DNA of 37,057 nucleotides. Source: Clostridia bacterium (GTDB taxonomy: Bacteria; Bacillota; Clostridia; UMGS1883). The notes under the pieces are model-generated. The model had not been told where the DNA came from, did no database searches, and saw only the letters and a list, made by a program, of their open reading frames with translations. Made by a program: the position numbers and the translations under genes. The stretch spans positions 1 to 37,057 of the forward strand of contig JAZNOC010000055.1 in NCBI GenBank assembly GCA_045580605.1, in the 5' to 3' direction. Of this stretch, positions 61 through 4,289 are shown one piece after another. The number at the start of each line of letters is the position of its first letter. Position 1 is the first letter of the stretch.

Positions 61-2160
61 ATGGAGTACAAATTTGAGGCCTGGGAAGGTTTTGGTGGCG
101 GAAGTTGGAAAAAAGAAATAAATGTACGAAGCTTCATCAAAAATAACTATACCCCTTATGACGGGGATGAAAGCTTTCTTGAGCCTCCAACAAAGGACAC
201 GCTCGACCTTTGGGAAAAGGTGCTCAAATTAAGCGCAAAGGAAAGAAAAGCCGGCGGCGTTCTGGATATGGATACAAAGATTATATCCACAATCACATCG
301 CATGGACCGGGTTATCTTGATAAAAACAAAGAGAAAATCGTAGGTTTTCAGACGGATAAGCCGTTTAAGCGTGCTCTTATGCCTTACGGTGGAATTCGTA
401 TGGCGGAAAGGGCGTGCACCGATAACGGTTATACTATAGATCCCGAAGTTAAGGAGTTTTTCTCAGTACACAGAAAAACACACAATGCCGGAGTTTTTGA
501 TGTCTATACTCCCGAGATGAGAGCGTGCCGCTCAAGTCATATTATTACAGGCCTTCCCGATGCCTACGGCAGGGGTAGGATTATAGGCGACTACAGGCGT
601 GTTGCACTTTACGGTGTTGATGTACTGATTGAAGATAAAAAAGAACAAAAGGTAATAACACGCTCAGCTATGCTTCCCGATATTATCCGTGCAAGAGAGG
701 AGCTTTCAGAGCAAATCCGTGCGCTTGAAGACCTCAAGAAAATGGCACTGAGCTATGGCTTTGATATTTCCCAGCCGGCAAGAGATACTAAAGAGGCTAT
801 CCAGTGGCTCTACTTTGGTTATCTCGCAGCCGTTAAGGAGCAAAACGGTGCGGCAATGTCGCTTGGCAGAACATCGACATTCCTTGATATTTACGCAAAC
901 AGAGATATCAAAAAAGGTATATATACAGAAAAAGATATACAGGAGTTTATTGACCATTTTATTATGAAGCTCCGTCTTGTAAAATTTGCACGTACTCCCG
1001 AGTACAACTCACTTTTCTCAGGCGACCCTCAGTGGGTTACGGAATCTATAGGTGGTATGACGGTAGACGGCAAGCATATGGTAACAAAAATGTCTTTCCG
1101 TTATCTGCACACACTTACAAACCTCGGTCCTGCGCCTGAGCCGAATTTGACGGTGCTTTGGTCAACTCAGCTTCCTGTAAAATTCAAGCGCTACTGTGCG
1201 AAAATGTCAATTGAAACATCTTCAGTTCAGTACGAAAATGATGACCTTATGCGCGTTGTACACGGTGATGACTATGCAATTGCCTGCTGTGTATCTTCAA
1301 TGCGTGTCGGCAAGGAAATGCAGTTCTTCGGCGCACGTGCAAATCTTGCAAAGTGTTTGCTTTATGCTATTAACGGCGGCGTTGATGAAATCTCGGGCGA
1401 GCAGGTTGCTCCCGAATTCCGCCCCGTAACGTCGGAATATCTTGACTTTGACGATGTTATGATAAAATATGATGAAATGATGAAGTGGCTTGCAGGGGTT
1501 TATGTAAACACACTCAATATTATTCATTATATGCACGATAAATACTGCTACGAAAAAATACAGATGGCTCTTCACGATAAAAACGTAAAACGCTGGTTTG
1601 CAACAGGTATTGCAGGACTTTCTGTTGTTGCCGATTCACTTTCTGCAATTAAGTATGCAAAGGTTAAGCCAATCCGCAACGAGAAAGGTATTGCAGTTGA
1701 TTATGAAATAGAGGGAGATTTCCCCAAATACGGTAACGATGACGACCGTGTTGACTCAATTGCAGTTGATGTTGTTCACAGATTTATGGGTCATATCAGG
1801 AAAAATCATACTTACAGAGAAAGTATTCCCACAACATCAATACTCACAATAACCTCAAACGTGGTTTATGGTAAAAACACCGGTGCCACACCTGACGGAC
1901 GTAAGAGAGGGGAACCGTTTGCACCCGGTGCAAACCCGATGCATCAGAGGGATACTCACGGTGCAGTAGCATCGCTGTCTACAGTTTCAAAGCTTCCTTT
2001 CAGGGATGCTCAGGATGGTATATCAAACACCTTCTCAATTATTCCGGGTGCACTTGGCAAGGACGACAGAATTTTTGCAGGTGATATTGAGGTCGACCTT
2101 GATTGCGAGGGCGGAGCATGCTTTTCACCTACTCTTTTCCAGGACCTCGACACAGACTAA
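61..2160 (+). CDS. pflB: Pyruvate formate-lyase (formate C-acetyltransferase), large fragment without the glycyl-radical domain
   Basis: 699-aa ORF with a PFL-type sequence throughout. It has the active-site Cys pair in [10 protein letters not shown] and conserved [10 protein letters not shown] and [17 protein letters not shown]. Homology stops near 2073, then 29 non-PFL codons run to TAA at 2158-2160. Confidence 0.9.
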
Positions 2161-2178
2161 CTTAAGGAGGAGATTTAA

Positions 2179-2421
2179 ATGGCAGCAACACAAAACCAAA
2201 TTAATAATTTAGTGTCTCTTCTTGACGGCTATGCCCAAAAAGGCGGACACCATCTTAACGTAAATGTTTTCACAAAGGAAACACTTCTTGACGCTCAGGC
2301 ACATCCTGAAAATTATCCTCAGCTTACAGTAAGAGTGAGTGGATATGCAGTTAACTTTGTTAAGCTTACGAAGGAGCAGCAGGATGAGGTTATCGCAAGG
2401 ACTTTCCATGATAAAATATAA
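2179..2421 (+). CDS. Free-standing glycyl-radical domain (PFL C-terminus, GrcA/YfiD-like)
   Basis: 80 aa carrying [39 protein letters not shown], the PFL C-terminal glycyl-radical signature (RVSGYAV). AAGGAGG SD at 2164-2170 lies 8 nt before the ATG. Same reading frame as 61..2160. Confidence 0.85.
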
Positions 2422-3157
2422 CACAAAGGGACTCATTCATTCGGTTGAAAGCTTTGGCACAGTTGATGGACCCGGCATAAGATATGTTGTGTTTATGCAG
2501 GGCTGTCCTATGAGGTGCCTGTACTGCCACAATCCTGATACGTGGGAAGTCGGTGCAGGGAAAGAGATGAGTGCCGAGCAAATCATTTCTGAATATAAAA
2601 AGAACAGCGTTTTTTATGAAAAAGGCGGAATTACGGTAACGGGCGGCGAGCCACTTCTGCAGATTGATTTTCTAATTGATCTTTTCAAAAAAGCTAAAGA
2701 AGAGGGCATCCATACTTGTATTGATACGTCAGGTATAGTCTTTGACGAAAACAATGTCAAAAAGATGGATGAGCTTATGAGATTTACCGATCTTGTGATG
2801 CTTGACATTAAGCATATTGATCCTGTAATGCACAGGGAAATAACGGGGATGGATAACGAAAATATTCTCGCCTTCGCAAAATATCTCGATGAAAAGAACA
2901 TTCCAATATGGATAAGGCATGTTGTTGTGGAGAATATTACAGATAACCCCGATGACCTTATCAGGCTCGGTGAGTTTATAGGAGAACTTAAAAATCTGCA
3001 GGCAGTTGATGTGCTTCCGTATCACACAATGGGGGTTTCTAAATATAAGGAGCTTGGTATAAAATATCCGCTCGAAGGTGTTTTGCCCCTCTCGGTTGAT
3101 GCGGCGTCAAAAGCGAGAAAGTTTATTATACAGGGAATAAAAAGAAAAAGGATGTAA
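2408..3157 (+). CDS. pflA: Pyruvate formate-lyase activating enzyme (radical SAM)
   Basis: [46 protein letters not shown] carries the CxxxCxxC radical-SAM motif typical of PflA. I chose the ATG at 2408 rather than the ORF-track 2339 start because the upstream extension overlaps the previous gene and is not PflA-like. Confidence 0.9.
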
Positions 3158-3176
3158 TTACATCCTTTTTCTTTTT
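3139..3176. terminator. Bidirectional rho-independent terminator between convergent pflA and the peptidase gene
   Basis: Perfect palindrome AAAAAGAAAAAGGATGTAATTACATCCTTTTTCTTTTT with A/T runs on both sides. Confidence 0.7.
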
Positions 3177-3182
3177 ATGTAT

Positions 3183-4289
3183 TTAGTTTTCTATTGCCTG
3201 CATAAACGTGATGTCCGAAAGCTTAAAGCCCTTTGATGCCACACATGTTTTGTCAAATGTAACACCCTTGTATCGACCTTCCGTTCCATACGCTGCTCCC
3301 GAGGTTGGAGCAGGGTCGTAGAATAAAACATCATTACCGTCAAAACCTACTGCAACCATAGTATGAGGGAAGCCTGCATATCTCACAAGCACGCCCTCGG
3401 GATGCGCTTTCAGTGCCTCTATAAGAGCACAGCGTACAACTGCATCCGACTTTTGCGGATTGTTTATATAAGTTCCGCCGGAAATATTATCGCGACCTCC
3501 GTAGTAAACGCTGGTTACAGGCAATGCAGATGTGAATCTCAAATTGTATGCCGAAATAATGTCGTAGTGATAGCAGTAAGCCCCATTGGATGTTTTTTGC
3601 AAATTGATTTGGGCAATATCGCTCGGGGTAACGCGAGTGCCTGTTACATTGGAAATAAGCATTGCATACGAGCATACCCAGCAGTAGCCGCTGCCGAAAC
3701 CAGGAAGCTGGAATTCCTCTTCATTCTGGAAATAGTATGTATGATTTTCAGGAAGCTGGGATGTGTAGTTATCGAAAACCTCAACTTCTTCATAAGCCAA
3801 CTGAGAGTCCTGCTGGTCTGACACAATCATATCATCAGAGCTCAGCTTTTGAAGATAGACAGTATTAGACGCCTTGTTGAAATTTACCGAATAGTTGAAA
3901 ATCCGTGCAAAATCACGAACTGCAATGCAAAGCCTTCCATTAATATAAACACATGGTGCGGAAAGTCTGTAAAAAACATACTCGTAAACTGACGTGCCCG
4001 TAAGGTCTGCAACAGTTATATATTCCTCATTTGGGACAATGCAGGTTGAAACGGTTCTACTGCTTACAACCGCGCTTTTTGGGTCGTCATATCCACTGTA
4101 TGAATAATCAAGCTCAGACGCAAGACTTTTTGCATCTGCATAAGTAACACCATCGCGAATAATCGGCTTTTGTGAAAGAGTGGTTTTAACACCATCAATA
4201 ACTAAATTTACGGGAGTATCCTCGTAAGCAAGAGTATGCACAGGTAGCAATATTAAAATTGTCAGAAAAACTGCCAGTATTTTTCTCAT
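3183..4289 (-). CDS. Secreted protein: copper-amine-oxidase-N-like stalk domain plus C39-like (papain-fold) cysteine peptidase domain
   Basis: Signal peptide MRKILAVFLTILILLPVHTLA. The N-terminal DGVKTTLSQKPIIRDGVTYADAKSLASEL resembles the Cu_amine_oxidN1 fold. The C-terminal GYCWVCSYAMLISN plus FPHTMVAVGFDGNDVLFYDP resembles a Cys/His peptidase_C39_2-type domain. Assignment is from motif memory only. Confidence 0.5.
   Translation of the reverse strand: MRKILAVFLTILILLPVHTLAYEDTPVNLVIDGVKTTLSQKPIIRDGVTYADAKSLASELDYSYSGYDDPKSAVVSSRTVSTCIVPNEEYITVADLTGTSVYEYVFYRLSAPCVYINGRLCIAVRDFARIFNYSVNFNKASNTVYLQKLSSDDMIVSDQQDSQLAYEEVEVFDNYTSQLPENHTYYFQNEEEFQLPGFGSGYCWVCSYAMLISNVTGTRVTPSDIAQINLQKTSNGAYCYHYDIISAYNLRFTSALPVTSVYYGGRDNISGGTYINNPQKSDAVVRCALIEALKAHPEGVLVRYAGFPHTMVAVGFDGNDVLFYDPAPTSGAAYGTEGRYKGVTFDKTCVASKGFKLSDITFMQAIEN

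Follow-up and report, generated by a model that had tools for sequence, protein, structure and literature searches.

Among glycyl-radical enzymes, pyruvate formate-lyase (PFL) is the most widespread, and gut anaerobes use it as a main route from pyruvate to acetyl-CoA. It is vulnerable to oxygen, which cleaves it irreversibly at the radical glycine. Here we describe a PFL locus of Clostridia bacterium (UMGS1883) in which the catalytic body and the glycyl-radical domain are encoded by two separate genes, the second of which we refer to as grcA3. The stretch analyzed, called the window below, is the 37,057-nt contig JAZNOC010000055.1 of assembly GCA_045580605.1. The only studied remedy for oxygen cleavage is YfiD/GrcA of Escherichia coli, and the mode of its binding to damaged PFL is still unclear (PMC8683613; PMC13450708). 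YfiD is activated by the PFL-activating enzyme and can replace the PFL radical domain (PMC8683613, PMC13450708). An engineered truncated PFL (tPFL, PFL 1-695) combined with YfiD has wild-type activity once activated (Andorfer et al. 2021, PMC8683613). In the same study YfiD binding required PflB residues 696-733 (PMC8683613). A June 2026 review of glycyl-radical enzymes covers spare parts of the YfiD type only (PMC13450708), and our search of the literature for GrcA3 or a natural split PFL found no paper describing either. We consider it probable, judging from gene content and homology boundaries, that the operon in the window encodes an obligately two-subunit PFL made of a 79-kDa body and the 9-kDa GrcA3, with the activating enzyme PflA co-encoded.

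PFL body and small ORF

The first gene (61..2160, + strand) encodes a protein of 699 aa and ends with a TAA stop at 2158-2160. This protein aligns with model positions 1-664 of 744 of the PFL equivalog TIGR01255 at 1095.6 bits (curated cut-off 994.2), with Pfam PFL-like (E 5e-221) and with residues 9-681 of E. coli PflB (PDB 1H16). It retains the catalytic pair Cys409-Cys410 (nt 1285-1290), and both cysteines are invariant among 70 homologues. Family score and Cys-Cys pair together identify the protein as a PFL, yet one that carries no glycyl-radical domain on the same polypeptide, as TIGR01255 positions 664-744 are found on a separate open reading frame (ORF) of 80 aa (2179..2421, + strand). 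The small ORF also aligns with residues 683-756 of E. coli PflB and 68-125 of E. coli GrcA. Body and small ORF are exact complements in their homology boundaries (664/664 in TIGR01255 and 681/683 in PflB), and the 106 positions of Pfam Gly_radical are divided between them, with 1-50 on the body and 49-106 on the small ORF. These alignments agree with the initial annotation of this DNA, which had read the locus as a PFL split just ahead of its glycyl-radical segment.

The 80-aa protein has the loop RVSGYAV at residues 52-58, in which Gly55 (nt 2341-2343) is the predicted radical glycine. Residues R52, S54, G55, Y56, A57 and V58 are invariant among 16 homologues, which marks the segment as a glycyl-radical loop. 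The NCBIfam model NF038360, ‘autonomous glycyl radical cofactor GrcA3’, is matched end to end (residues 4-80 on model positions 2-78 of 78) with 164.9 bits against a cut-off of 158. The GrcA3 family is thus already named in NCBIfam and the ORF of the window is a member of it. The relationship to GrcA/YfiD proposed in the initial annotation is therefore right in kind, while membership lies neither in the E. coli-type family (TIGR04365, spare_glycyl; 92.2 bits against a cut-off of 170, residues 19-79 on model positions 65-125) nor in GrcA2 (103.8 against 145 bits).

Relatives of the 80-aa ORF were collected in a scan of one genome per species, which gave at least 585 coding places; the best 80 were examined, and all locus counts and L-numbers below are drawn from these. 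The protein database in addition holds hundreds of 80-aa homologues on long contigs, named ‘autonomous glycyl radical cofactor GrcA’ by NCBI, some of them present on more than 200 contigs. A broader representative search with the 80-aa ORF returned mostly fragments and mis-called starts and is unsuitable for family counts. GrcA3 is identical at 61 of 76 positions to L075, an unsplit clostridial PFL, at 45 of 67 to E. coli PflB and at 40 of 56 to E. coli GrcA, and in PFL coordinates its start precedes the region common to GrcA and PFL. Because of this earlier start and the closer similarity to clostridial PFL C-termini, we infer that GrcA3 originated within clostridial PFL, by fission or by duplication followed by decay, and was not recruited from enterobacterial GrcA.

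The segment between the two regions of PFL homology (positions 2074-2202) has 129 nt, equal to 43 codons in the same frame. It contains a strong Shine-Dalgarno (SD) sequence, AAGGAGG (2164-2170, + strand), 8 nt upstream of the small-ORF ATG at 2179, and a second in-frame TAA at 2176-2178. Direct reading confirmed the positions of both ORFs, the stops, the SD and the ATG as first annotated. Downstream lies pflA (2408..3157, + strand), which encodes a PFL-activating radical S-adenosylmethionine enzyme of 249 aa (TIGR02493 PFLA, 304.9 bits, cut-off 231.75). Its ATG at 2408 falls within the end of grcA3, so that the overlap between pflA and the small ORF reported initially is real; it spans 14 nt, ATGATAAAATATAA. 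An identical -14 overlap recurs in six other loci (L022, L041, L043, L051, L052 and L059), which suggests translational coupling of the two genes. A sequence scan found a terminator-like hairpin with a T-run at 3137..3178 (+ strand), and no terminator-like site at the body-grcA3 junction. The locus thus has the layout of a three-gene operon for the body, grcA3 and pflA, closed by this predicted terminator.

Proposed mechanism

Since the neighboring body is devoid of a radical domain, the radical in this operon could come from GrcA3 alone, which would be obligatory and not a spare. The expression ‘built-in spare part’, used for it initially, understates this role. In the mechanism we propose, PflA would abstract hydrogen from Gly55 of GrcA3 and so install the glycyl radical. 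GrcA3 would dock into the body and complete the barrel with its final strand, also contributing the radical loop and the C-terminal helix. Docking would set the radical loop beside Cys409/410, and the radical would then pass to Cys410/409. This would resemble the reconstitution of truncated E. coli PFL by YfiD in vitro, and a natural two-piece PFL appears feasible because tPFL with YfiD is fully active once activated. Because the part that oxygen attacks is a protein in its own right and costs little to make, damage could be repaired by exchange of the 9-kDa subunit. The likely benefit of the arrangement would be this cheap replacement of the oxygen-cleaved part.

Distribution and maintenance of the split

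The radical domain lies on a short ORF behind an upstream stop in 78 of the 80 species genomes examined, so the split reported for the window is kept across families. Split loci span Acutalibacteraceae, Oscillospiraceae, Ruminococcus, Lachnospiraceae and Erysipelotrichales, and include the isolates Beduini massiliensis, Ruminococcus sp. YE71, Sellimonas caecigallum and Lachnoclostridium phytofermentans. The sequence is continuous in the remaining two, L075, an ordinary PFL of 744 aa, and L054 with 794 aa.

L054 (~1838-4222 in JAZRJV010000003.1, a Treponemataceae metagenome-assembled genome (MAG)) is an unsplit PFL with a Cys-containing insert, ..GKDSSIDLASMKNYGNCMSCDTATIMAAPTVAETLANPVQ.., exactly at the split site of the window. 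It may represent an intermediate or a re-fused state.

The equipment of the small ORF for its own translation, pointed out in the initial annotation, recurs as well. Of 75 cases (74 related loci and the window), 73 have an SD-like motif no more than 20 nt from the start of the small ORF. A pflA-type CxxxCxxC motif follows downstream in the window and in 61 of the 78 related loci with sufficient downstream sequence. Among near relatives, the proportion of nonsynonymous differences (pN) is 0.04-0.07 in the small ORF against a proportion of synonymous differences (pS) of 0.58-0.94, with synonymous sites near saturation; the corresponding values for the C-terminal tail of the body (see below) are 0.13-0.21 and 0.62-0.84. 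Purifying selection on both parts and the intact catalytic Cys-Cys pair bear out the view that the two-piece PFL is maintained and not decaying. A pseudogene in decay, or an assembly or sequencing artefact that placed stops into an ordinary pflB, might be considered, given that MAGs can contain errors and that the end of this contig was suspected at first reading to be chimeric. Such an explanation is barely credible, as the same architecture recurs in dozens of assemblies made independently and in genomes of isolates, pN is much lower than pS, the small ORF has a dedicated SD and ATG, and the body passes the curated PFL cut-off.

The initial annotation described the 129-nt segment as an in-frame stop/SD/stop/ATG cassette and offered, as one explanation, the footprint of a gene-splitting mobile element with a target-site duplication. 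The segment has no counterpart in E. coli PFL, and A-ATT is present at both of its edges. The layout is indeed as described in the window, but it does not behave as a unit, since frame, spacer length and spacer sequence vary among loci. Among 56 two-ORF cases (55 loci and the window), the small ORF is in the same frame as the body in 18, at +1 in 21 and at +2 in 17; the spacers between the ORFs range from 3 to 118 nt and differ in sequence. With 18 of 56 cases sharing the frame, the in-frame geometry of the window is chance. The A-ATT repeat of 4 nt is a trivial match expected by chance, and we found no endonuclease or transposase ORF between the two pieces and no second copy of the 129-nt segment in the 37-kb window. 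The coding part of the segment is conserved at the protein level across families, and the near-universal presence of the split in the genomes examined is not the patchy pattern of a mobile element. Taken together, these findings make a mobile origin highly improbable.

Two further arrangements were rejected. Stop-codon read-through is contradicted by two in-frame stops in the window and by the other frames in two thirds of the loci. As to a split intein or trans-splicing, the tail has 28 aa and the leader 8 aa, and the only Pfam matches are PFL-like and Gly_radical.

In L. phytofermentans the gene order is body, a middle ORF, grcA3 and pflA, which fits Cphy_2823 to Cphy_2820. Cphy_2823 has been given as a PFL candidate and cphy2820 as an activase, and formate is a measured product of this organism (PMC3561251, PMC9765743). 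Formate production by a species that bears the split provides indirect in vivo support for a two-piece PFL.

The Cys-pair tail and the middle ORF

The body of the window ends in an acidic tail of 28 aa (2074..2157, + strand), with cysteines at C682 (nt 2104-2106) and C687 (nt 2119-2121). The initial annotation had counted this tail as part of the insert. The tail is more than filler, as its motif is conserved and shares homology with the C-terminal end of a free-standing small protein of other lineages. In split bodies the segment that follows ALGK(D/E)x is xΦFxGDΦxΦ(D/E)Φ (Φ, hydrophobic), which ordinary PFL lacks. The tail consensus is xIFxGDLxVDLDCxxGACxxPTLFEGLD, with the motif DC..GAC..P(T/N)LF.GLD. 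Homologues of the body in the protein database are 698-725 aa long, and all six C-termini inspected are such a tail. A profile search with tail sequences matched short contig-edge fragments only, and nothing outside the PFL core was matched when the tail profile was compared with the PDB.

Two truncated-type PFL bodies, P0393 (805 aa) and P0394 (821 aa), are ~100-120 aa longer than the other body homologues. Both terminate in a tail without a radical domain. The precomputed domains of P0394 place PF11230 between PFL-like and Gly_radical.

The locus type could be determined in 77 split loci, 58 of which have two genes and 19 of which have three. At least two cysteines are present in the body tail in 57 of the 58 two-gene loci and in the window, with a Cys-Cys spacing that varies among loci from CxC, CxxC and Cx4C up to Cx6C. 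In the 19 three-gene loci the body tail has no Cys, and the body and grcA3 are separated by a third ORF of 57-110 aa. An example is L072 (3583-3789); the others are L032, L036, L048, L053, L055, L057, L060, L061, L063, L066, L067, L071, L074 and L076-L080. These middle-ORF proteins are annotated as ‘hypothetical protein’ (ABX43182.1 of L. phytofermentans ISDg, WP_072417395.1) and the truncated bodies carry the plain label ‘formate C-acetyltransferase’, so both are of interest for annotation.

Comparisons against Pfam and NCBIfam gave no family above its curated cut-off for the middle ORFs. Their N-terminus (..ΦDELVxMΦDxΦΦxxGxGHxNΦ..) matches GrcA3 positions 2-32 (E 4e-5; hhalign 88%, E 3e-6), and their C-terminus shares the Cys-pair motif with the tail of the window (hhalign 95%, E 2.6e-8). 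The C-terminal motif reads DC..G..AC.xPT and stands ahead of an acidic end; no variation is seen at the second Cys and the next Pro in the alignment of middle ORFs. In a joint alignment of low similarity, AC.xPT(L) falls over (N/K)YPQLT, immediately before the radical loop. A resemblance of the middle protein to PflB from 683 to ~730, minus the radical loop and the last helix, is suggestive only. From these matches we infer that the Cys-pair tail is a remnant of an intermediate element that is a free-standing small protein in other lineages.

The natural body has no equivalent of PflB 696-733 and has this stub, as tail or middle protein, in its place. One tentative proposal is thus that the stub serves as a docking aid or placeholder for GrcA3. 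It is conceivable, with the same reserve, that many gut and rumen Clostridia have a three-component PFL made of the body, an exchangeable GrcA3 and a stub that controls docking, activation or redox-dependent release. The stub, whether attached to the body or made as the separate 57-110-aa protein, may then have arisen from the first half of the radical domain by duplication and decay. If true, it would be the natural counterpart of the unexplained PflB 696-733 requirement in YfiD rescue.

Another idea is that the tail or middle protein is not a passive stub and acts as a redox-sensing, metal-sensing or radical-quenching regulator that gates access of GrcA3. Nearly every locus has a Cys pair between body and GrcA3, be it on the fused tail or on a separate ORF; the middle ORFs agree without exception in the second Cys and in the Pro after it, and the motif aligns just ahead of the radical loop. 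A rigid metal site is difficult to reconcile with the variable Cys-Cys spacing, one locus (L059) has no Cys pair, and no matching family or structure was found in Pfam, NCBIfam or the PDB. On balance we regard a regulator of this kind as unlikely, yet as a serious alternative to docking.

Several observations count against an obligately two-subunit PFL with a functional stub. The two-subunit complex in Clostridia bacterium is a prediction from sequence, and the evidence for a role of the tail consists of conservation and weak alignments. In L059 (~1842-4240, a Lachnospiraceae MAG) the Cys pair is on neither the body tail (..DDDVFFAGDALNVDGMKLD) nor a middle ORF, the sole such case among the 77 loci. 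An AlphaFold2 model of the 699-aa body, computed from a shallow alignment of 70 homologues that are 77-94% identical, has a mean predicted local distance difference test score (pLDDT) of 52, with the tail below 35, values too low to locate the tail. Efficient assembly in trans is not automatic either, since truncated E. coli PFL binds YfiD poorly and is activated 32-fold less (PMC8683613).

Only 37 kb of the genome is in view and a second, intact PFL could be encoded elsewhere. GrcA3 could then be a true spare for a full-length PFL, with the adjacent truncated body inactive or otherwise employed, as the NCBI family name ‘autonomous glycyl radical cofactor’ would imply by analogy with E. coli GrcA. 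This is improbable given that the boundaries of body and GrcA3 are exactly complementary, that body, grcA3 and pflA are syntenic in most loci, and that the body is highly conserved and keeps its catalytic Cys pair. Moreover, the sole listed PFL candidate of L. phytofermentans sits in such an operon, apart from two microcompartment-type enzymes, which we take not to be PFLs. A two-subunit enzyme encoded within the operon remains our preferred interpretation.

Comparison with known systems

E. coli GrcA/YfiD is, like GrcA3, a small free-standing homologue of the PFL radical domain that carries RVSGYAV. The two differ in their partners. E. coli PflB has a radical domain of its own, and GrcA comes into play only once oxygen has cleaved the enzyme; the body in the window, unlike the partner of such a spare, has no radical domain. 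They also differ in form. E. coli GrcA, of 127 aa, is disordered over its N-terminal half, and its gene lies elsewhere; GrcA3 has 80 aa, lacks the disordered half, is encoded between the body and pflA, and begins 10-15 residues earlier than E. coli GrcA in PFL coordinates. Within the NCBIfam GrcA3 family the small ORF has full membership, yet the family name is silent on the truncated partner PFL and on the Cys-pair stub.

In the engineered pair of tPFL and YfiD, as is predicted for the window, a small protein supplies in trans the radical domain that the body lacks. That pair is artificial, binds weakly and is poorly activated, while the natural body dispenses with the equivalent of residues 696-733 and has a tail or middle protein instead. 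Phage nrdD genes split by homing-endonuclease cassettes are likewise glycyl-radical enzyme genes in two ORFs; the PFL split differs from these in that it lacks an endonuclease gene, is not patchily distributed and shows no conservation of the inserted DNA.

The best solved-structure matches to the body are two PDB entries named ‘Formate acetyltransferase’, 38lb (739 aa, 1147.9 bits) and 38la (687 aa, 1132 bits). Both are without a radical domain and are much closer to the body in the window than E. coli PFL is. While 38la stops at ALGK, 38lb runs on with the tail-like NVMFGECDM in a tail of ~50 residues, the remainder of which does not align with the window-type tail profile. Both appear to be such a truncated PFL body. 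A search for a publication linked to 38la or 38lb found none; it appears that a truncated body of this sort is under study elsewhere, which makes the present finding less novel. A fold search with the low-confidence body model (pLDDT 52) gave E. coli PFL as its sole match, and both entries are absent from the fold library, which is dated to 2026-04-08.

A radical subunit of 9 kDa that is always separate would be another evolutionary answer to oxygen cleavage, present in hundreds of species of Ruminococcaceae, Oscillospiraceae and Lachnospiraceae. A natural split PFL would also allow clean experiments on how the radical domain docks, on its activation in trans and on repair. For researchers of glycyl-radical enzymes the chief interest lies in the conserved stub. 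PFL with an autonomous glycyl-radical protein is already known as a kind, and the family of the small protein is named. What distinguishes the present locus, as far as it can be read from its genes, is a predicted obligatory radical subunit that would act in trans, a PFL body truncated at the position of PflB 681, and a conserved Cys-pair stub.

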